Notes under the pieces: model-generated
Told to the model about the DNA's origin: nothing
Database searches by the model: none
The model's input: only the letters and a program-made list of their open reading frames with translations
Shown here: positions 1-9,345 of the stretch, one piece after another
How the letters are laid out: each line of letters starts with the position of its first letter
How positions within the stretch are numbered: position 1 is the stretch's first letter
Made by a program: the position numbers and the translations under genes
Assembly (NCBI GenBank): GCA_002394665.1
Contig: DGUL01000007.1
Location: forward strand, 30,860-94,859
Origin: Rickettsiales bacterium UBA4311
GTDB lineage: Bacteria > Pseudomonadota > Alphaproteobacteria > Rickettsiales > Deianiraeaceae
DNA: 64,000 nucleotides
Direction of reading: 5' to 3'

Positions 1-10
1 TTTTTAGTTT

Positions 11-451
11 ATGAGCTTAAATGAAGTTAAAATGTCATCCTATTTGGATGTTAATTCTGTAATAGAAGATTGCAAAAAAGTTTCAATTTGCGATGCTGTT
101 AACGAGGCGATATTAAATTCAATACAAGCAAATGCAAGCGATATTAAAGTTAAATTTACAACAATTAAAGACAATGAATTGTCTTACAAAATTAAATCTA
201 TTGAAATTATTGACAACGGCGAAGGTTTTAATGATGAAAACATAAAACATTTTAGCACTTTATACACAAAAAATAAAAAAGAAAAAGGATGTAAAGGATA
301 TGGAAGAGTTTATTATAAAAAAGCATTTGAAGCAGTTGAAATATCTTCTTTCAATAGTAATAAAAACAATGAAAAAGTTAATTTTGTTTTTACAAACGAT
401 GATTTTAGCAAGGACGACAATATAGAATTACGTAAACACACACAAGGATAA
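11..451 (+). CDS. GHKL (Bergerat-fold; MORC/Hsp90/histidine-kinase-like) ATPase domain protein, probably the N-terminal part of a split ~664-aa ATPase-nuclease gene
   Basis: N-box NEAILNSIQANA (E at 104-106, N at 116-118), G1 box DNGEGF (212-229), G2 box GCKGYG (287-304). An in-frame TAG at 5-7 fixes the ATG at 11. The ORF ends at TAA 449-451, just after an (AC)4 tract. Confidence 0.75.
   Translation: MSLNEVKMSSYLDVNSVIEDCKKVSICDAVNEAILNSIQANASDIKVKFTTIKDNELSYKIKSIEIIDNGEGFNDENIKHFSTLYTKNKKEKGCKGYGRVYYKKAFEAVEISSFNSNKNNEKVNFVFTNDDFSKDDNIELRKHTQG
436..444. repeat. (AC)4A dinucleotide tract at the frame break between the ATPase and nuclease ORFs
   Basis: Sequence acacacaca. Frame 0 is open from 426 and frame 2 stops at 449-451. 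Adding one AC unit gives ...RKHTHKDNETSLLLENP..., which fuses both ORFs. Confidence 0.8.
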
Positions 452-464
452 TGAAACAAGTTTA

Positions 465-2003
465 TTGTTAGAAAATCCAATTATTGATAATATTACAAAT
501 AAAGATGTAAGTTATAATAAAAAGCATATTTATAACGACATATTAAATGTTGTTTATCCTTATATCTTTTTAGAAGAGAACAAAAATATAACAATATCTT
601 TTTATGTAAATGGAAATCAAGAATACGAAGAGAAAAAAAACGACAATGACAAGAATATTCCACTTATTATCAATTTAGATAAAATTAAAGGTATAGATGA
701 CAAGCAAATTATTTTAAATAAAGAAAATGGTTTATTTTTTGACAGCGAACAAAAAATAATTTTATGGTATAAGATTACAAAAAGAGATTTTAATCAAGAT
801 AAAGCGACAATTACAACAGCAATTTGTCATAAAAATAGACCATTATTTGAAAGTTCATTTGATAAACAACCATTGCAAATTGATATAAATGTAAAAGGTT
901 ATGATGTATTGTTCTTATTAGAAAGTGAGTGGATTGACAACCAACCAATAGATAAAGACCATCATATCAAACTTGATGACAAAAATAAAGATAAATGGAA
1001 TGAGATAAAAAAGAAAGTTGAAGATGCTATAAATGAAATTTTATGCAATAACATTGCAGATTTAAAACAATATAATAAAGAAAACAAAAAGAAATTCATA
1101 CAACAATATCCAGAATATGCAAGATTTGTAGTTGAAGAAAAAGAAACTGGTTATTTTGATGAGGGTAAAGTATTAAAACAAGCAAGAAAATATAGGGATG
1201 AATTAGAAGATAAAGTGGCAAATGATAAAGGAAAGAATAAAACAGAAAAAGAAGCAAACATAAGGGAGGCAATTTACTTTGACTTAAAAAGTTATTTTAA
1301 ACACAGAGAAAATATATTAAATCAATTTCAAGAACTAAAAGACACAAAAATAGAAGGACAAATACACAATTTATTATTTCCGCAATATTTTAGTAGAAAA
1401 GAAGCGGAACAACCACAAGCAAAAGATTACAGCAATGATTTTTTAAATAAGATTGAATTTGGATATAACAATTTATGGTTAATAGATGATAGATTTATGG
1501 GATATAGTTATATTGCAAGCGAGCAATATATTTCAACTTTTATCAAAAATAATAATTTACAAAAAGTAGAAGGAAACGGAGAAATGGATATTGTTGTTTA
1601 TTTTGACAATGAAGATAAAAAACGAGCAGTGATCGTGGAGTGTAAAAAGATGACTGCAAATTATAAGGAGAATGGAACAGGAATATTGCAATTATTTAAA
1701 TATGCAAAACATTTATATGATAGCGGTATTACTGAAATTTATTTAGTATTACCAGTAAATATTGATAAAGATTTTAGAGATATATTAGAAAATCAACAGC
1801 ATTTTTGTAAAGTTTTTTCACATAAAGGCGAGTTATGGCAAAATAGTTATAATGATAGAAATGCTTACATTCAAGTAATAACACCTGATGCTTTAATTGC
1901 TAACGCACAAGCGAGGAATAAAAAGTTTATTGAAATGGCAAACGAAGAATACGAAAAACAAATTGACGAACAATATAAAGATGACAACAACTCTAACAAA
2001 TAA
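465..2003 (+). CDS. PD-(D/E)xK nuclease-domain protein (Shedu SduA / DUF4263-like C-terminal domain), likely the C-terminal part of the split ATPase-nuclease gene
   Basis: C-terminal pattern IHNLLFP...NLWLIDDRF...GEMDIVVY (D 1587-1589)...AVIVECKK (E 1638-1640, K 1644-1646)...GILQLFKYAKHL fits D-x(n)-E-x-K plus Q-x-x-x-Y. Only a TTG start is available at 465, and the frame is open upstream to 426. Confidence 0.6.
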   Translation: MLENPIIDNITNKDVSYNKKHIYNDILNVVYPYIFLEENKNITISFYVNGNQEYEEKKNDNDKNIPLIINLDKIKGIDDKQIILNKENGLFFDSEQKIILWYKITKRDFNQDKATITTAICHKNRPLFESSFDKQPLQIDINVKGYDVLFLLESEWIDNQPIDKDHHIKLDDKNKDKWNEIKKKVEDAINEILCNNIADLKQYNKENKKKFIQQYPEYARFVVEEKETGYFDEGKVLKQARKYRDELEDKVANDKGKNKTEKEANIREAIYFDLKSYFKHRENILNQFQELKDTKIEGQIHNLLFPQYFSRKEAEQPQAKDYSNDFLNKIEFGYNNLWLIDDRFMGYSYIASEQYISTFIKNNNLQKVEGNGEMDIVVYFDNEDKKRAVIVECKKMTANYKENGTGILQLFKYAKHLYDSGITEIYLVLPVNIDKDFRDILENQQHFCKVFSHKGELWQNSYNDRNAYIQVITPDALIANAQARNKKFIEMANEEYEKQIDEQYKDDNNSNK

Positions 2004-2952
2004 TCGTTCTAACCATCAAATTATCAAACATCAATTTTGAAAATCTATTGTTATATCTATAACAAAACTCGTTGATATAATTTTCTGCATATTTACAAGA
2101 TATGTGATGATAAATACCAAACACACCTCTTTTTAATGTCGCCCAAAAGCCCTCTATTGTATTTGTATAGATTTTATAGGTTTTATAACCCTCTTCTCTG
2201 TTTTCAAAACTCTCTTCTTTTGCATATTCACCAACAGAGTGATTAACACATTTATGGTTATATTCCATTCCAATTTGTTTATAACTTTTTAATTCATCTG
2301 TTATAACTAAACTTCCTTGTTTTACATTTGAATATATTTGTTTTAATAGTGTTGTCGCTTTTGTATCATCAATTTTTACCGCTTTAACACCGCCATTTCT
2401 TTCAATCATTCCCATAATAATAAGTTTTTCAAAAACTCCTTTTGCATCAATCCTTTTTGATAAGTGCATATTTTCTGCTTTACCACCAATATATGTTTCA
2501 TCAATTTCAACAATTCCTTTTAATAATCCGTCGTTGTTATCATTGTTGTTGTCGTTATTTTCTTGGTTTTTCATCGCCTCTCTTATTTTATGCAACATTC
2601 TCCAAGCTGTCTTATATGTTGTTCCTATTTCTCTTTTTAGTTGCAACGCACTTACACCTTTTTTACTATTCAAAAACAAATGAATTGCATACATCCATTT
2701 TCTTAAATCAGTGCAAGATTTCTCAAAGATAGTTCCTTTGAATATTGAAAAAGTATTTTTACAATTAAAACAAATAAAATTCTTTGGTCTTTTAGCAATG
2801 TGATAGACACTATGTTCGCAACCACAATGATTGCATTTTACTTTATTTCCATATCTTATTTTAATGTAATACTCTATACAAGCTAATTCAGTTGGAAATT
2901 TTTTAATAAATTCAAAAAATGTCATAAAACTTACACTCATTTTATAACACAT
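1993..2952 (-). CDS. IS1595-family (ISXO2-like) DDE transposase, apparently intact
   Basis: N-terminal zinc-ribbon CNHCGC...CFNC, then TYKTAWRMLHKIREAM, VEIDETYIGGK, LVITDELKSYK, NTIEGFWATLKRG, NEFCYRYNNR. These are hallmarks of IS1595 transposases. Confidence 0.9.
   Translation of the reverse strand: MCYKMSVSFMTFFEFIKKFPTELACIEYYIKIRYGNKVKCNHCGCEHSVYHIAKRPKNFICFNCKNTFSIFKGTIFEKSCTDLRKWMYAIHLFLNSKKGVSALQLKREIGTTYKTAWRMLHKIREAMKNQENNDNNNDNNDGLLKGIVEIDETYIGGKAENMHLSKRIDAKGVFEKLIIMGMIERNGGVKAVKIDDTKATTLLKQIYSNVKQGSLVITDELKSYKQIGMEYNHKCVNHSVGEYAKEESFENREEGYKTYKIYTNTIEGFWATLKRGVFGIYHHISCKYAENYINEFCYRYNNRFSKLMFDNLMVRTIIC
1993..2952 (-). mobile_element. IS1595-family insertion sequence (only the transposase body delimited; terminal inverted repeats not identified)
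   Basis: The transposase ORF overlaps the nuclease ORF's 3' end by 11 nt (1993-2003). It is followed by a 139-nt non-coding stretch (2953-3091). Confidence 0.6.
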
Positions 2953-3091
2953 TATTTTTATATGTCAAGGGATAATTACCTTTGATACTTTTTTATTTAA
3001 TTTGACAAACAATTATTATATTGTATAATAACCTTTTATTAAAATAAAAGAAATCAGTGCATTTGATGCGGCTCAAAGTAAAGCTAAATAC

Positions 3092-4054
3092 ATGGATATT
3101 TATGGTAATTTATATGAATTTAATCAAAAAGGTCATATAATAGTAAATGGTAAAGAACTTTATGGAGCATGTAATAAACGTCCTGTCGATATCAAGAGAC
3201 AAACCTTGCGTAATAAATATGAACGACCACCACACTTTACAATTAAGATAGGTAATAACGAGATTAAGGCTGACTCAATACAAGTTATTCACGATCTGAC
3301 GACAAAACGTCGTGATTTAGTGTCTTTTGCGCCTGCGGTTGACGAAGATGAAGAAAATAAAAAAAAGCATCTGTCCAAGCAAATTGATATTAACGGTATC
3401 CCTATTAGGATGAATCCAGAAGACGTGGAAATATACTTAAACATGGTTCCGACAATAAAAAACAAAAAGATTATAGATTATAAATCTTGTCCAACTATTA
3501 AAGTTAAAGTACCGTTTAGTTTATATTCTTGGCGCAATCAAGAAAATGGAAGCATAGAAAAAATATTGTATGATATTACAAAAGATACAGGTTCATTAGA
3601 CATAGTATTAGAAAAAAACCGAGTAATACATGGATATTATACCCACAGCAAAGGTAATGTCATTGATATATATGAAATACAACCGGATTTGTCAAATCCA
3701 GGTAAATTTAAAAAAATACAGCGATTATCGCAAAAACTACAAGATGATTATCAAGATATAGCTGTAATTAACAATAAAATTTTCCTATATAAGGACGATC
3801 CTAGACCAAACGTTGAAGTCTATCAAATCTTGCAAGATAGTATTCAACACACATTCAGTGCTAAAAATAATGATGCTTATTCTATGCAAGATTTTTTAAA
3901 TCGGACAAATCTTAAAACTTTTCAAGCAATATCAAGAGATGATTATGCCAAAATGGAACAAGAATATATTAAAAATATGTTAACACAACAAAATATTAAC
4001 AACGCAGGATTGACAATAAATCTTGAAAATGAGAAAGGAGGAATTAAAAAATGA
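3092..4054 (+). CDS. hypothetical protein (320 aa), no domain recognised
   Basis: Long ORF with non-repetitive composition and no signal peptide or TM segment. An in-frame stop lies at 3029-3031 and there is no ATG, GTG or TTG between that stop and the ATG at 3092. Confidence 0.5.
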   Translation: MDIYGNLYEFNQKGHIIVNGKELYGACNKRPVDIKRQTLRNKYERPPHFTIKIGNNEIKADSIQVIHDLTTKRRDLVSFAPAVDEDEENKKKHLSKQIDINGIPIRMNPEDVEIYLNMVPTIKNKKIIDYKSCPTIKVKVPFSLYSWRNQENGSIEKILYDITKDTGSLDIVLEKNRVIHGYYTHSKGNVIDIYEIQPDLSNPGKFKKIQRLSQKLQDDYQDIAVINNKIFLYKDDPRPNVEVYQILQDSIQHTFSAKNNDAYSMQDFLNRTNLKTFQAISRDDYAKMEQEYIKNMLTQQNINNAGLTINLENEKGGIKK

Positions 4055-4057
4055 ATA

Positions 4058-4714
4058 CTAAATAGTTTTAGTATCATATATTAGCTTTTTAATCTCACTT
4101 TTTGCAAATTCAATATCAGGATCGGTAACAATTGGAATAGCGATTTTGATAATTTCATCAACTGGTAAATTCCACCATTGCCACTTTTCAAGTAATTCAA
4201 TCATTTCATCGTCAAATCTTTTACGAATAACTTTTGCTGGATTTCCGCCGACTATACAGTAAGCAGGAACGTCTTTCACGACATGCGAATTTGTCGCAAT
4301 TATCGCACCGTTTCCAATTTTTACACCAGGCATAATTGTTACATTTTCGCCAATCCAAACGTCATTTCCGACAATCGTGTCGCCTTTATAAACATGATGA
4401 CTTTGCTGATAGCTATCACCAGGAAAGCCGTTCATAATTGAAAACGGAAAAGTAGATGCACGATTATAGTCATGATTACAGTCATTCATGAAAAATTTTA
4501 CACCCTTTGCTATTGAGCAAAATTTGCCAATTATTAATTTATCTTTACTAAACTGATAATGATGTAAAATCCCGCTTTCAAAATCATCGGTGCCATAGCT
4601 AAAATCTCCGGCCTCAAAATTATGATGCTTTATTGATTTCAAATAAATTTGCGTTTTCAAACCACATTTCAATGGATAAATTTCATTTGGATTTGGTTTT
4701 TTATTTGCCACCAT
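4058..4714 (-). CDS. Vat-family / XAT-class xenobiotic O-acetyltransferase (streptogramin A or chloramphenicol acetyltransferase-like hexapeptide protein)
   Basis: PNPNEIYP N-terminus, LIIGKFCSI, KGDTIVGNDVWIGENVTIMPGVKIGNGAIIATNSHVVKDVPAYCIVGGNPAKVIRKRF and WQWWNLPVDEI closely follow Vat(D)/CatB-type proteins. Confidence 0.8.
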   Translation of the reverse strand: MVANKKPNPNEIYPLKCGLKTQIYLKSIKHHNFEAGDFSYGTDDFESGILHHYQFSKDKLIIGKFCSIAKGVKFFMNDCNHDYNRASTFPFSIMNGFPGDSYQQSHHVYKGDTIVGNDVWIGENVTIMPGVKIGNGAIIATNSHVVKDVPAYCIVGGNPAKVIRKRFDDEMIELLEKWQWWNLPVDEIIKIAIPIVTDPDIEFAKSEIKKLIYDTKTI

Positions 4715-4727
4715 ATTAACACACTAA
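4715..4727 (-). repeat. his-cluster junction motif, truncated copy (ATTAACACACTAA) spanning the hisF stop and the base before the vat start
   Basis: On the coding strand TTAGTGTGTTAAT-ATG encodes the last hisF residues LVC*. It matches the core of the copies at 5470 and 8090. Confidence 0.7.
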
Positions 4728-5468
4728 AACTTCTCTTTCCATCAACTTATTTTTTAATTCTTTAATATCAATCAAATTCTCGTGAAACACGCTTGCACCC
4801 AATGCACCGGAAACACCAGTTTTTTGAAAAACTTCCACAAAATCTTCAATGCACCCTGCCCCTCCGCTGGCTATTACAGGCACTTTTACAAGTTTTGTAA
4901 TTTTATCCAACAACTCAATATCAAACCCGTTTTTAGTGCCATCAAAAGACATGGAATTCACGACAATCTCGCCCGCTCCGCGATTTTCAACTTCCTTTGC
5001 CCAGTCAAAAATGCTCCATTTGCACTTTTCTGTTTTATCAACATTGCCTGTGTTTTTGTATATCTCTCCGCCTTTCGTGTCAATCCCAACGACCAAAGTT
5101 GAAGAACCAAAATTTTTAACAATCTCATCAATCAAATCAGGATTTTTCAATGCAGGCGAGTTAATTGATACCTTGTCAGCCCCCATTTTTAGGCACCTCT
5201 CCACCTTTTTGCAACAATCAATATTTCCAGCAACACAAAAAGGAATATTGATTTTTTTTGCAACATCTTCGATCATTTTTGTATCAATTTCTGTGCCGTT
5301 TGCGGATGCCAAAACGTCATACAAAACCAGCTCATTTATGCCGTTTTTGCAGTATTTTTCTGCCAACTCAACGGCTTCTCCAATGACTTCGTGATTGCTG
5401 AATTTCACACCCTTGACAACTTTTCCATTTGCAATATCAAGACAAGCAATTATTCGTTTTGTTATCAT
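4716..5468 (-). CDS. hisF: imidazole glycerol phosphate synthase, cyclase subunit HisF
   Basis: KRIIACLDI N-terminus, LVLYDV, VSINSPA, VVGID, VIASGGAG: a typical HisF (beta/alpha)8 barrel. Confidence 0.95.
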   Translation of the reverse strand: MITKRIIACLDIANGKVVKGVKFSNHEVIGEAVELAEKYCKNGINELVLYDVLASANGTEIDTKMIEDVAKKINIPFCVAGNIDCCKKVERCLKMGADKVSINSPALKNPDLIDEIVKNFGSSTLVVGIDTKGGEIYKNTGNVDKTEKCKWSIFDWAKEVENRGAGEIVVNSMSFDGTKNGFDIELLDKITKLVKVPVIASGGAGCIEDFVEVFQKTGVSGALGASVFHENLIDIKELKNKLMEREVLVC

Positions 5469-5469
5469 G

Positions 5470-5496
5470 TTAACATATTAACACACTAAAATTTTA
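5470..5496 (-). repeat. his-cluster junction motif copy upstream of hisF
   Basis: TTAACATATTAACACACTAAAATTTTA. It matches the copy at 8090-8116 at 22 of 27 positions (hand count) and lies 1 nt from the hisF ATG. Confidence 0.7.
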
Positions 5497-5510
5497 TTTT
5501 TCAAGTTTTA

Positions 5511-6265
5511 TTATTTCTTTTTCAAATCTTCGTATATTGGTTCAAATGTTTCTAATTTTTTTAAAAATTGATTTTTTTCTTCTTCTGTCTTATTTTTAAT
5601 CTTATCGTAAATTTGTTGTTGAAATGCTTTAACATTTTCTTCTGTTTGTTCTTCATACGATTTTATTGGCAATAAATCTTTCCAAAATGGTCCCCCAAAA
5701 ACCACTATTTATTTTATAACTATATTTTTCTCTTGTCAAACCATTTAAGAATGGAAAACATTTATCAATGTTATCATATGCTTTTTGATGTTCTGCATCA
5801 TAAGTGCAACAATGTCCTATAATACAATCTTTTTGCGATGTAATTCAACCATTTTCTACCTTTCCATTCTTCTTGTAATACTCTGTCACATAATTCAGAA
5901 AAAGTAATTGTTTCATGATTTTTTGCCGTTTCAATTAAAGTGTTTGCTATTGATAACAAATCTTGTGTTTTTTTATCTTGTGGTGTATTTTCTATTTCTA
6001 TGTCTTCTTTATAATCCCTACAAAAAAACCTTAATAAATATGCTTTTATTCCAGTAAGATTAAAAATTCTAATATAATCATTAATATTTTCTATTTTAAT
6101 TTTATTATTATCAATGTCAGCACTATCATCTATGAATTTTCTCGCTTCTTTTATTGTAAAGAATAGCCAAATAAATAAAACTAATAATGCAATCAAAAGT
6201 TCACAAGAACAAAAGCAATCAATAAAACCTTCACATTTCATATAAGCAAGATTAAAACAACCCAT
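5511..6265 (-). pseudogene. frameshifted ORF of unknown function occupying the position expected for hisA
   Basis: 155-aa ORF (5798-6265, N-terminal TM helix), then an open ~48-codon segment in another frame (DAEHQKAYDNIDKCFPFLNGLTREKYSYKINSGFWG...), then a 64-aa ORF (5511-5705). The third frame starts at a C5A5 run (5692-5701). No similarity to HisA by eye. Confidence 0.4.
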
Positions 6266-6269
6266 GCCT

Positions 6270-6277
6270 GGGGGGGG
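6270..6277. repeat. G8 homopolymer (C8 on the coding strand) between the hisH stop and the 155-aa ORF start
   Basis: cctggggggggtta. An 8-nt G/C homopolymer is conspicuous in this AT-rich sequence. Confidence 0.9.
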
Positions 6278-6859
6278 TTAATAGTCAACTGTTTTTCTCA
6301 ACCAATCTTCCAATATTTTCTCACCAATTTTACCACTTTTTTCAGGATGAAATTGCATTCCTATGAAATTGTTTTTTTGAATTATCGCAGAAATTTTTGT
6401 TCCAAAATAATCAACAAAAGCAGTTGTGTTTTTGCAAATTGGAACATAAAAATTATTGCAAAAATAAACAAACTCTCCTTGATATTTTCCGTTTTCAATG
6501 CAATTCCAACCCATTTGCGGAGATACTAAAACAGCAGGCAAATGCACAACTTTTTCATCAAAAATTCCAATGCATTTTGTGTCAAATTCTTGTGAAAAAG
6601 CACACATAATTTGCATCCCTAAGCAAATTCCTAAAATAGGTTTTTGCGTTGTCCGCAACGCATCAATCAAGTCTTGTTTTTGCAACATTTCCATTGCAAC
6701 TTTTGCGTTGCCAACTCCGGGTATAATTATCCTATCGCACGCATCAAACTCACTTTTATTTTTTACAATAACTATATCATTTTGCTCCAATCTTTCCAGA
6801 GCAAAACGAATAGAATTGATGTTATAACCACCACTGTTTAGTATTCCAATTTTTATCAT
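6278..6859 (-). CDS. hisH: imidazole glycerol phosphate synthase, glutaminase subunit HisH
   Basis: IIPGVGNA, catalytic PILGICLGMQ, QFHPEKSG: a class I amidotransferase triad. Confidence 0.95.
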   Translation of the reverse strand: MIKIGILNSGGYNINSIRFALERLEQNDIVIVKNKSEFDACDRIIIPGVGNAKVAMEMLQKQDLIDALRTTQKPILGICLGMQIMCAFSQEFDTKCIGIFDEKVVHLPAVLVSPQMGWNCIENGKYQGEFVYFCNNFYVPICKNTTAFVDYFGTKISAIIQKNNFIGMQFHPEKSGKIGEKILEDWLRKTVDY

Positions 6860-6867
6860 AAATTACT

Positions 6868-6894
6868 TTAATATGTTAATATACTAATACGATA
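6868..6894 (-). repeat. his-cluster junction motif copy upstream of hisH
   Basis: TTAATATGTTAATATACTAATACGATA. It matches the hisD copy at 24 of 27 positions and lies 8 nt from the hisH ATG. Confidence 0.75.
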
Positions 6895-6896
6895 AA

Positions 6897-8084
6897 TTAT
6901 TTAATTCTTGAAATAATGCTCTCTGCGTGGAAGCCTAAACCCTCATTTTTAGCCATACAAATAGTTTTTTCTGCAACATTTTGCAAACCATTTTTCGTAG
7001 CGGTTTGAAATGTTATAAACTTACCAAATGACAACACGGAAAGGCCGGAAAAACCTTTCGCAAAACCGCTTGTAGGCAGTACGTGATTTGTGCCACTCAA
7101 ATAATCTCCCAAGCTTTCGCTCGTATATTTGCCTATAAAAACACTTCCTGCGTTTGTAATTTTTTCAGCAATTTCTTCTGCGTTTTTCGTATTGATTATC
7201 AAATGTTCCGGCGCGATTTCATTAGATTTTTTAACCGCTTCATCAAGATTTTTTGCAACTTCAATTTGCAAATTATTCAATGATTTTTCCAGCAAATTCC
7301 AACGATTTGACTGCCCGGCAATGGTTTTAATATTATCTTTAATCCATTCCGCTTGCGTATCATCGGTTGTCAAAAGCCAAGCCTTACTTTCTTTTCCGTG
7401 TTCTAATTGTGCCAATAAATCGTACATTGTATCCTCTTTTTTTGCAGTCTCGTCGGCGATGACAAGCACTTCGCTTGGCCCTGCCGGCATATCAATGGCG
7501 ACAAATTGAGAGACCATTTTTTTTGCCGTATCAACAAATTCATTGCCAGGGCCGAAAATTTTATCAACTTTTGGAACATCACCGATGCCGTATGCCATAG
7601 CAAAAATCGCCTGTGCTCCGCCGATTGTGTAAATTTTCTCAACACCAAGTTGTTGCAAAGTGAACAAAATGGCTTGCGAAGGGTTCGGCGGAGTGCAAAC
7701 AATAATGTTTTTGCAACCCGTGATCTGTGCCGGAATTATATTCATCAACGCACTTGAAAATAGCATATTCGGCACATAAACTCCAACATTTTCAATTGGC
7801 GTGAATTTCCTCCAACACGTTATTTCAGTTGAAGTTTCAATTTTATCATTCTTAAATTCTTCAAGTTTTTTCGCTTCTGCTTTGTGAAATTTTGTAATAT
7901 TCTCTATCGCTGTTTTTATCGCTGTTTCAAGGTTTTTGTCAACTTTAATGTTATCAGGAATTTTGAAAATCAAACTATTTCCTTCAAGTTTATCAAATTT
8001 TCTTGACAACTCTAATAGTCCTTCTTGCCCTTTGTTTATACAAATCTCTCTAATTTCTTCAACAATTTTTGCTGTATCATTCAT
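6897..8084 (-). CDS. hisD: histidinol dehydrogenase HisD
   Basis: YTIGGAQAI, GPGNEFV, PAGPSEVLVIAD, APEHLII, GTNHVLPTSG. Confidence 0.95.
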   Translation of the reverse strand: MNDTAKIVEEIREICINKGQEGLLELSRKFDKLEGNSLIFKIPDNIKVDKNLETAIKTAIENITKFHKAEAKKLEEFKNDKIETSTEITCWRKFTPIENVGVYVPNMLFSSALMNIIPAQITGCKNIIVCTPPNPSQAILFTLQQLGVEKIYTIGGAQAIFAMAYGIGDVPKVDKIFGPGNEFVDTAKKMVSQFVAIDMPAGPSEVLVIADETAKKEDTMYDLLAQLEHGKESKAWLLTTDDTQAEWIKDNIKTIAGQSNRWNLLEKSLNNLQIEVAKNLDEAVKKSNEIAPEHLIINTKNAEEIAEKITNAGSVFIGKYTSESLGDYLSGTNHVLPTSGFAKGFSGLSVLSFGKFITFQTATKNGLQNVAEKTICMAKNEGLGFHAESIISRIK

Positions 8085-8089
8085 AAATT

Positions 8090-8116
8090 TTAATATATTA
8101 ACACACTAATACGATA
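8090..8116 (-). repeat. his-cluster junction motif copy upstream of hisD
   Basis: TTAATATATTAACACACTAATACGATA, 5 nt from the hisD ATG. It contains the perfect palindrome TTAATATATTAA. Confidence 0.75.
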
Positions 8117-8216
8117 GTATAATAAAAATACAAAAGTCAAGATGATTTTTTTGTTATGATTTTTATTTTCTTGAACTTTATCTTGTTTAATAACGAAAAA
8201 GAAATGAAAACACATT

Positions 8217-9062
8217 CTACCTAAACATCAAATTTATGTCGCTTACAATAATACCCTCAGCACCAAATTCTTTAAGCTTTTTGCATACTTCAAAAATTTT
8301 ATCTTTTTTACAAAGCGTGTGAATCGCAACATAATCACTATCAATCAAATTCAAAATTGTTGGAGAATTTATAGAAGGAAGCACATTTTTAATATCGTTA
8401 ACTAAGTCTTTTTTTAAATTAAACATCAAATATTTTTGCTTCTTACCAAGTAAAACTGCGTCAATTCTTGCAATTAAATCATTTAAAATTTCACTTGAAA
8501 AATCTTTATTTTTTATCAAAACTGCTTCAAGATTTAAAACTTTTTTCAGCTCTTTTAACCCTTGTTGCATCAAAGTTGACCCAGTTTGAACAATGTCGAA
8601 AATGTAATCAGCAAAACCAAGTTCAACTGAAGTTTCAACAGAACCAGACATTTTTACTATACTTGCATTTATGTTATTTTTCTCTAAAAAATCCCGTAAA
8701 ATATTCGTATAACTTGTTGCAATTGTGGAATTTTGAACTTGTAAAATATCCCAGTTTTTGTAGACACCTCTACCGGCAAAAGAAAGATGACATTTCGAAA
8801 ACCCAAGCTTCCTGACTATTTCGGTTTTTTCTTCCATTTTATATTCCAAAAAACTGTCCATTCCGAGAACTGCGACATCAAATTGCCTATGTATTAAAAC
8901 GGGGATATCGGCACCTCTTACAAAATAAATTTCCAAAGGAAAATCTAAAAAACTGCAACAAAGTTTTTTATATCCACTTGTTTGAAGCCCGCAATTCTCA
9001 AGCAAATTTAAAAAATCATTTGAAATTCTATCGCTTTTTTGAATCGCAATTCTAAGTTTCAT
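8217..9062 (-). CDS. hisG: ATP phosphoribosyltransferase HisG (long form with C-terminal regulatory domain)
   Basis: LRIAIQKSDRIS, GADIPVLI, IATSYTNIL, DIVQTGSTL, and a C-terminal ~90-aa domain (281 aa total). Confidence 0.9.
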   Translation of the reverse strand: MKLRIAIQKSDRISNDFLNLLENCGLQTSGYKKLCCSFLDFPLEIYFVRGADIPVLIHRQFDVAVLGMDSFLEYKMEEKTEIVRKLGFSKCHLSFAGRGVYKNWDILQVQNSTIATSYTNILRDFLEKNNINASIVKMSGSVETSVELGFADYIFDIVQTGSTLMQQGLKELKKVLNLEAVLIKNKDFSSEILNDLIARIDAVLLGKKQKYLMFNLKKDLVNDIKNVLPSINSPTILNLIDSDYVAIHTLCKKDKIFEVCKKLKEFGAEGIIVSDINLMFR

Positions 9063-9063
9063 A

Positions 9064-9345
9064 TTACTTTTTTTTTAAAAGATTTTTCAAAACCCACCTA
9101 TAACCACCGAATTTTTCATCCTTTAAAAATCTCGCAACTCTTGTAATTGTTGTAGTGCTCGCACCGGTTTTTTTTGAAATTTCTGTATAAGGTATTTCTT
9201 GTGCAAGCAAAACCGCAACTTCAAGCCTTTGTTGTAATGCATCTAATTCTTTGGGGGTTGTGATGTCTTTTAAAAAATTCAACATGACTCTTCTGTCGTT
9301 TATTTTTGCTAAAATTGTAGATAAATTCAAATCATTCTTAGACAT
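9064..9345 (-). CDS. TrpR-family / YerC-YecD-like DNA-binding protein
   Basis: TPKELDALQQRLEVAVLL...TGASTTTITRVARFLK helix-turn-helix resembles TrpR and B. subtilis YerC. Its stop is 1 nt from the hisG ATG (TAA-T-ATG). Confidence 0.75.
   Translation of the reverse strand: MSKNDLNLSTILAKINDRRVMLNFLKDITTPKELDALQQRLEVAVLLAQEIPYTEISKKTGASTTTITRVARFLKDEKFGGYRWVLKNLLKKK

Follow-up and report, generated by a model that had tools for sequence, protein, structure and literature searches.

The window analysed here, the whole 64,000-nucleotide (nt) stretch of Rickettsiales bacterium UBA4311 (contig DGUL01000007.1, positions 30,860 to 94,859), begins inside a mobile unit in which a frameshifted gene for a GHKL-type ATPase joined to a nuclease meets, tail to tail, the gene of an IS1595-family transposase (Table 1). 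The unit runs from a left inverted repeat through the ATPase–nuclease gene, hereafter the cargo gene, and the convergent transposase gene to a right inverted repeat, and is ~3.02 kb long. Its left end was placed on contig L001, which carries the same insertion together with the sequence upstream of the window.

Table 1. Features of the transposable unit and its cargo gene (window positions unless a contig is named; aa, amino acids; bp, base pairs; ORF, open reading frame)
Feature	Position	Strand	Remarks
Left copy of 8-bp target-site duplication TTTGATAC	L001 9488-9495		before window start
Left inverted repeat GGCAATTATCCCTTAAAGTATAAAA	L001 9496-9520 = window -40 to -16		outside window
ORF1, 5' part of cargo gene	11-451	+	146 aa, ATG start; GHKL motifs I-III
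N-box, E32/N36	104-118	+	
DNGEGF	212-229	+	
GCKGYG	287-304	+	
3' part of cargo gene	426-2003	+	frame open from 426; mechanical ORF2 465-2003, TTG; T150, MutL/Hsp90-like middle domain, helical linker, C-terminal nuclease domain
Decayed tract cgtaa-acacacaca-ag	431-446	+	homologous to TT(AC)8AA of intact copies
E449	1353-1355	+	E-D-ExK residue
D527	1587-1589	+	E-D-ExK residue
E544	1638-1640	+	E-D-ExK residue
K546	1644-1646	+	E-D-ExK residue
IS1595-family DDE transposase	1993-2952	-	319 aa; convergent; overlaps cargo gene 3' end by 11 nt
Promoter-like site for transposase	2939-2968	-	TTGACA-18 nt-TAAAAT, 11/12 matches, consensus match only; -35 inside right repeat
Right terminal inverted repeat TTTTATATGTCAAGGGATAATTACC	2956-2980		25 nt
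Right copy of 8-bp target-site duplication TTTGATAC	2981-2988		

The initial annotation had taken the two ORFs to be one gene broken at an AC tract. Their coordinates, their differing frames, the TTG start and the frame open from 426 were all re-derived from the sequence. ORF1 ends at a premature TAA caused by a frameshift; ORF2 (512 aa) lies in frame +1 relative to it, its open frame being limited upstream by a TAG at 423–425, and the two frames part at the acacacaca tract at 436–444. When one CA/AC unit is added to this tract, conceptual translation yields the continuous 664-aa protein that had been foreseen. Intact homologues of 677, 670, 655, 653 and 649 aa were recovered by protein search, covering 95–100% of the fused query, the nearest being 83% and 62% identical to it. 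In these homologues the junction reads HTHTHKDNETS and is coded by (AC)8. Further, ORF2 has TTG as its only start, no Shine–Dalgarno-like sequence was seen upstream of it on reading the DNA, and the frameshift falls within the ATPase fold, 5' of an invariant threonine (T150). Because full-length homologues exist, their junction is coded by (AC)8, ORF2 has only a TTG start and the break lies inside the ATPase fold, the two ORFs are one frameshifted gene for a 664-aa ATPase–nuclease of the paraMORC3 type. Instead of orthologues consistently divided into two genes and lacking a variable AC tract, intact orthologues and variable tracts were found.

The N-terminal half carries GHKL motifs I–III, whose residues E32/N36, D68-G70-G72 and G93/G96/G98 vary little or not at all in alignments of 30 and 70 homologues. 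Pfam HATPase_c_3 matches the fused protein with 33.1 bits against a cutoff of 25, and also matches 65 of the 70 family members. An AlphaFold2 model of the fused protein (predicted local distance difference test, pLDDT, 78.8) was compared with known structures by Foldseek, which aligned 330–450 columns to N-terminal fragments of MLH1/PMS2/MutL, to Hsp90/TRAP1 and to Topo VI-B (E 1e-10 to 1e-8). The modelled fold is that of an ATP-binding domain followed by a MutL/Hsp90-like transducer (S5-like) middle domain, so that motifs I–III, the profile match and a second domain of transducer type in the model all place the protein in the GHKL superfamily. In the PDB, searching by sequence and by profile brought up nothing beyond MutL/PMS N-terminal domains and a marginal match to NucS. 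The initial annotation had seen a complete Bergerat fold within ORF 11–451. Its N-box, DNGEGF and GCKGYG were confirmed, but the fold is not complete there: T150, which is invariant, and the modelled strand 150–157 lie 3' of the frameshift. T150 and its strand resemble GHKL motif IV.

The C-terminal half carries an E-D-ExK pattern. D527, E544 and K546, together with H453, W490 and D493 (the last two in NLWLIDD), are invariant in both alignments; E449 is invariant in the smaller one, of 30 sequences, and is found in all but one of the 70 sequences of the larger. Since the ATPase half dominated the Foldseek search of the whole protein, the C-terminal 260 aa were modelled separately (pLDDT 83.8). 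The matches of this model were to PD-(D/E)xK nucleases only, and weak (best E 1.5e-3); they include PaqCI, BamHI, EndoMS, XisH, Can2 and FokI nuclease domains, and no Shedu structure is among the top 50. With motifs conserved and structural matches to both halves, the proposed fusion of a GHKL ATPase to a PD-(D/E)xK nuclease stands.

A kinship to Shedu is harder to place. The IHNLLFP...NLWLIDD region had been read as a DUF4263/Shedu pattern, and its residues H453, W490 and D493 are indeed conserved; DUF4263 itself was detected by neither Pfam nor PADLOC. The Pfam model SduA_C (DUF4263, PF14082) gave no match to the fused protein at E up to 1 and none to the 70 full-length family members at E up to 0.1, and scans of the fused protein and 70 relatives with PADLOC and NCBIfam matched no defence-system model. 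Among 18 isolated C-terminal domains, SduA_C matched one (7e-4) and HSDR_N_2 five. For comparison, the SduA_C model gives 90.8 bits to a bona fide Shedu. This protein is encoded next to a homologue of the window family in Vibrio fluvialis, and a 39-sequence SduA_C alignment was built from it. Comparison of the family's C-terminal alignment with this alignment by hhalign remained below significance (probability 15.5%, E 0.0017, 91 columns), pairing the family's IELK with the Shedu IEIK and the terminal strand–helix with the Shedu VTFDELL. The result weakly suggests distant kinship within the PD-(D/E)xK superfamily and is not proof of it. The protein is accordingly filed under paraMORC3, its nuclease domain being at most a possible relative of the Shedu domain.

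The architecture, which the initial annotation could not match to any named system, already has a name: it is known as paraMORC3 and as type I-D Shedu. Iyer, Abhiman and Aravind (2008) described paraMORC3 as a GHKL domain, an S5-like domain and a C-terminal restriction-endonuclease-fold domain with E-D-ExK, occurring sporadically in Proteobacteria and Bacteroidetes, either standalone or beside restriction–modification (R-M) genes (PMC2292703). Later, GHKL-plus-nuclease proteins were classed as type I-D Shedu (bioRxiv 10.1101/2023.08.10.552793), and VcSduA of Vibrio cholerae was found to protect against T1-like phages, a protection abolished by E27A and K557A (Adams et al., Nat Microbiol 2025, PMC12137116). 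The same study equates VcSduA-like proteins with paraMORC3. Our searches recovered 414 relatives among GTDB species representatives, spread over Proteobacteria and Bacteroidota, the best being 43% identical, so that the source species is apparently absent from these representatives. Repeating the search with a profile of 70 sequences brought in hardly any additional homologues. No conserved partner gene was found around 80 family members, while HsdM, type III Res/Mod and Dcm recur beside members that are not borne on insertion sequences (IS). The assignment to paraMORC3 follows from the agreement of the E449-D527-E544xK546 pattern, the phylum spread and the standalone status with occasional R-M neighbours. 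The defence role proposed for the family at the outset gains support from the anti-phage activity of VcSduA and from the R-M genes adjoining family members.

A 672-aa V. fluvialis homologue (E27, K553) shares every invariant residue of the window family. Its gene, annotated as an 'ATP-binding protein', lies on a plasmid (L178; NZ_AP028130.1, 336421–344349) in a same-strand row with a type I methylase, a specificity subunit and the canonical Shedu mentioned above. Canonical Shedu and paraMORC3-type nucleases thus co-occur as neighbours.

That the cargo gene is carried by an insertion sequence is seen at several levels. The transposase scores 178.4 bits on NF033547 (cutoff 75) and has precomputed Pfam matches to Zn_ribbon_IS1595 and DDE_Tnp_IS1595. 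When the flanks of different copies are aligned, similarity between copies begins and stops abruptly at 25-nt inverted repeats, which place the ends of the element at a left repeat GGYAATTATMCCTTAAAGTATAAAA and a right repeat TTTTATATGTCAAGGGATAATTRCC and are 84% complementary. The same cargo–transposase arrangement recurs in L004, L005, L008, L174 and L009, in unrelated chromosomal contexts. Five independent insertion sites show five different 8-bp duplications: TTTGATAC for the window and L001, GTTGTTTC for L004, GTAATCGT for L008, AAAAAACT for L174 and AAATATAT for L009, a diverged element in a Deianiraeaceae metagenome-assembled genome (MAG). Further, one contig of 3062 bp coincides exactly with the element, running from its left inverted repeat to its right one. 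Because similarity is bounded by the inverted repeats, five 8-bp duplications were found, an element-sized contig exists and the transposase scores well above the NF033547 cutoff, the cargo gene is the passenger of an IS1595-family transposable unit whose left end lies ~40 nt before the window.

The tract at which the cargo gene is broken varies among sister copies of the element, a variation for which a check of related strains had been suggested. Eight AC units, present in five contigs (L004, L005, L008, L174 and L175), give an intact gene with an HTHTH loop and a product of 677 aa. Nine units, present in eight contigs (L089–L092, L179–L181 and L183), give a gene split into 155 + 524 aa (415 aa in L183). 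The gene is also split in L006, by a 20-nt interrupted tract, and in the diverged allele L007, whose tract at the corresponding codons is (AG)7. The tract is in frame in L182, with about (CA)4, and at the corresponding site of L013, with (CA)5. The intact (AC)8 copy of L004 and the split (AC)9 copy of L090 are inserted at one and the same chromosomal site, flanked by asd and a cysteine-synthase-like gene. Their alignment spans 9541 nt with no mismatch and one gap opening; L090 is one AC unit longer, which fits the single gap and is the sole difference seen in the directly compared sequence. Since these two copies, one intact and one split, differ by an AC unit alone, the tract of the sister copies is a genuine slippage site whose length sets the reading frame and so turns the full protein on or off. 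In the model the tract lies between motifs III and IV of the ATPase, in a coil or surface loop that should tolerate changes in length.

In the window taken by itself, a tract of this size would be unremarkable, five dinucleotide tracts of at least four units being present against 4.8 expected, and none of at least five. The significance of the (AC)4 tract therefore comes from the homologous tracts of the sister copies, namely (AC)8, (AC)9, the 20-nt interrupted tract and (AG)7. Exact-pattern scans for the sequence flanking the tract gave no match in the metagenome and viral collections of JGI, and a protein-pattern scan of metagenomes returned only distant relatives, adding no further tract lengths.

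Several further observations concern the variability of the cargo. One allele is a mosaic: residues 1–400 of protein P0005 (L008 5001–7013) are 90–100% identical to P0001, and its nuclease domain is 74–92% identical to P0007. This chimera indicates, at the level of sequence, module exchange between element copies, and exchange of effector modules is expected of a gene under diversifying pressure. In L055 (5125–5144), an (AT)10 tract lies inside a family member's gene, right after the ATPase N-box, as a possible second repeat switch. The gene of L013 is split at an A9 homopolymer (1652–1660) though its (CA)5 site is in frame; a sequencing error or a second slippage site may be the cause. In the (AC)9 copy of L183 (733–1980, P0006), the downstream ORF ends early and the protein diverges immediately ahead of the ExK motif, with VIVKSKK for VIVECKK; further damage seems to be building up in this copy.

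The window copy differs from its sisters in that its tract has decayed. It reads TTAC-GT-AA-(AC)4, a 7-unit length (14 nt) in which two units are mutated, and is 2 nt shorter than (AC)8 and thus out of frame. The tract is identical in L001, L002 and L003, which are independent assemblies of three samples, and the fused in-frame protein of the window allele was not found in the protein search, the 83% identical homologue being the nearest intact relative. A close relative, L173, has a different degenerate tract of 13 nt that is also out of frame. When the window copy is compared with other copies, the ratio of non-synonymous to synonymous substitution rates (dN/dS) comes to 0.16–0.22 in both halves of the gene; against L173 it is higher, 0.3–0.4, on small counts. 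The low ratios mean that the gene has been under purifying selection for most of its history. Since the tract is degenerate, identical in all sampled assemblies and without a recovered in-frame protein, the gene was probably switched off recently, after which the switch eroded and left it stuck off. Switching back appears improbable, and the gene is most likely silent and becoming a pseudogene. Of the two possibilities initially raised for the tract, slipped-strand switching thus holds for the sister copies, whereas recent inactivation fits the window copy better than active toggling.

Taken as a whole, the locus is in our judgement likely to hold a paraMORC3-type gene that is frameshifted, travels as the cargo of an IS1595-family element, is switched by a repeat in sister copies and is probably off here. 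By homology to VcSduA and to GHKL enzymes, the intact protein would be a GHKL ATPase that acts as a dimer and whose MutL/Hsp90-like middle domain serves as a clamp. The clamp would sense or engage invading DNA and then allow the C-terminal E-D-ExK nuclease to cleave it, a reaction that would need the ExK lysine as well as ATP hydrolysis. In the sister copies, slippage of the tract turns translation of the full protein on with (AC)8 and off with (AC)9 or the 20-nt interrupted tract. The benefit in defence that the window family would bring is inferred from the literature on its relatives. Why an insertion sequence would keep a phase-variable cargo is a matter for speculation; control of cost or autoimmunity and bet-hedging across copies are two conceivable reasons.

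Some points weigh against this account. The anti-phage role is argued from a distant member, roughly 20–25% identical, and the link to VcSduA runs through the V. fluvialis homologue and the published equivalence with paraMORC3 rather than through the VcSduA sequence itself. The SduA_C and PADLOC models miss the family. The evidence for ON and OFF states comes from consensus assemblies of different samples, so that (AC)8 and (AC)9 could be two stable alleles and not the states of a fast switch. Finally, the 512-codon ORF2 of the window copy is still fully open, and rare reversion or low-level frameshifted expression may occur.

The association of cargo and transposase extends well beyond the close copies. 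In L009, L011 and L012, cargo proteins that are 36–39% identical are paired with transposases that are 52–71% identical, within the same inverted-repeat termini. At least three further IS1595 lineages (L013, L057 and L018), with transposases ~25% identical, bracket a family member with inverted repeats of their own and the same convergent layout. The pairing is, on this sequence evidence, old. All diverged copies paired with the IS come from MAGs titled Rickettsiales or with related names. The cargo-plus-IS1595 unit of L018, a Rickettsiales-labelled MAG, has inverted repeats of more than 150 nt (3857–4156 and 7002–7300), each arm of which holds a long (CT)12/(AG)n dinucleotide tract.

A bolder view starts from the same association: the paraMORC3 nuclease would be an integral, co-evolved module of a distinct IS1595 group, ATP-gated and of benefit to the element rather than an incidental defence passenger; with a repeat switch and exchangeable nuclease modules in each copy, a multi-copy IS family would endow the host with a combinatorial, stochastically expressed set of nucleases. 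The gain to the element might lie in the destruction of rival mobile DNA or of unoccupied or foreign targets, or in a cost attached to its loss. We regard this as unlikely.

Unlikely too, and a little more so, is the idea that the cargo is an accessory of the IS rather than a host defence gene, that is, an ATP-regulated nuclease serving transposition, target choice or maintenance in the manner of TnsA/TnsC or TnpB, or an addiction module. The age and stability of the pairing, its recurrence with the convergent layout in the further IS1595 lineages, and the overlap of the 3' ends of cargo and transposase genes in every close copy speak for such an accessory. However, in 73 of 80 GTDB loci no IS1595 transposase adjoins the gene, which is intact in 69 of the 80 and in several stands beside R-M genes, and the published anti-phage activity of a family member needs both ATPase and nuclease residues (PMC12137116). 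The element also persists with the cargo off in the window and in L089–L092. The passenger can also be another gene altogether: in the Candidatus Megaera plasmid AP017966.1 (L176 4001–5525), an IS1595 transposase 44% identical to that of the window is accompanied, in the same convergent and 3'-overlapping position, by a 213-aa passenger with no Pfam match and no similarity to paraMORC3. More generally, no paraMORC3 cargo was found beside the closest plasmid-borne IS1595 transposases (Treponema and Candidatus Megaera).

The cargo gene could, in principle, be a natural two-gene system, with an ATP-binding ORF1 and a nuclease ORF2, or be read through by ribosomal frameshifting on the CA tract. 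Both ORFs are otherwise intact and split versions recur in several assemblies, as either version would have it. Against this, split and intact versions differ by repeat unit number alone, ORF2 offers neither a start other than TTG nor a visible ribosome-binding sequence before it, and the break would part motif III from the T150 strand. Moreover, the 9-unit tract, the 20-nt tract of L006 and the 13-nt tract of L173 leave different offsets relative to the in-frame eight units; with more than one out-of-frame offset, a single programmed shift could not rescue all alleles. On the strength of the allele differences at the DNA level and of these offsets, a two-gene system and programmed frameshifting were rejected as very improbable. 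It is barely credible that an error of sequencing or assembly created the frameshift in a gene that is really intact: repeats are prone to miscalls and the source is metagenomic, but the same sequence stands in the window and in L001, L002 and L003, a tract of four units is easy for short reads, and the related allele L173 has an out-of-frame tract of its own.

The insertion lies within a cluster of his genes in an uncultured bacterium of low GC content (L001 4596–18598, corresponding to about 1–9100 of the window plus upstream sequence); the IS separates hisG, hisD, hisH and hisF from hisB and hisA/hisIE. Next to the right end of the element is a 320-aa ORF without annotation (window 3092–4054). 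The window holds no rRNA gene. Further along, at window 6270–6277, eight consecutive G (C8 on the minus strand) stand out in a genome of 31.6% GC. Read on the minus strand, they make up the spacer that separates the stop of a hisH-like gene from the ATG of a 155-aa ORF without annotation (5798–6265), taaCCCCCCCCaggcATG, and are a candidate homopolymer switch or an oddity of translational coupling. About 8 kb upstream of the window start, L001 258–1715 encodes a 485-aa HEPN_Apea-domain protein, a candidate defence or toxin gene.

As for what is new here, the protein type is known and has one experimentally validated anti-phage member, so that the architecture alone is not news. New are an insertion sequence that keeps a single-protein defence nuclease as a fixed passenger across deep divergence, and a passenger with its own slipped-strand switch, for which naturally occurring ON and OFF alleles were found a single AC unit apart. 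If the proposed account is true, the element would be a compact example of how a defence gene spreads within and between genomes of uncultured host-associated bacteria, and repeat-based phase variation would extend beyond R-M enzymes to a Shedu-like effector. It would also provide naturally matched ON/OFF and domain-swapped alleles for testing what GHKL–nuclease proteins sense. For annotation, it follows that the paraMORC3-type family is missed by current Pfam and PADLOC models.

One of the closest known systems is paraMORC3 itself, with which the window protein shares the GHKL, S5-like and E-D-ExK domains, the occurrence in Proteobacteria and Bacteroidetes and the often standalone genes, sometimes beside R-M genes. 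IS-borne copies and repeat tracts are not described in PMC2292703. VcSduA, from the WASA lineage of V. cholerae, is likewise a single protein of ~650 aa with a GHKL domain, a clamp-like middle and a PD-(D/E)xK domain, and corresponds in the motif I glutamate (E32 here, E27 in VcSduA) and the ExK lysine (K546 and K557). It is distant, however, the Vibrio-type clade being about 20–25% identical to the window protein; it resides in a genomic island, whereas the window gene resides in an IS and is frameshifted, and no repeat-based switching has been reported for it. Canonical Shedu SduA resembles the window protein in being a PD-(D/E)xK effector regulated by an N-terminal sensor domain, but the profile similarity is of sub-significance level and in V. 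fluvialis SduA is a separate gene neighbouring the paraMORC3 member.

IS1595 elements with passenger genes are a described category, the 'transporter IS' (tIS) of Siguier, Gagnevin and Chandler (2009; cited in PMC3129680). They share with the present unit an IS1595-type DDE transposase, short terminal inverted repeats, 8-bp duplications and one passenger unrelated to transposition. In the part of the literature covered here, no described tIS was found with a paraMORC3 or Shedu-like defence nuclease as its passenger. A second difference is that the pairing is here conserved across several transposase lineages.

Phasevarion-type R-M genes carry simple-sequence repeats that switch their reading frame. 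The cargo gene of the sister copies resembles them in its intragenic repeat, in length change by slippage and in the resulting on/off control of a defence gene's frame. It differs in that the switched gene is a single ATPase–nuclease without a methylase, carried on a mobile IS, and in that the repeat is a dinucleotide coding for a (His-Thr)n loop.

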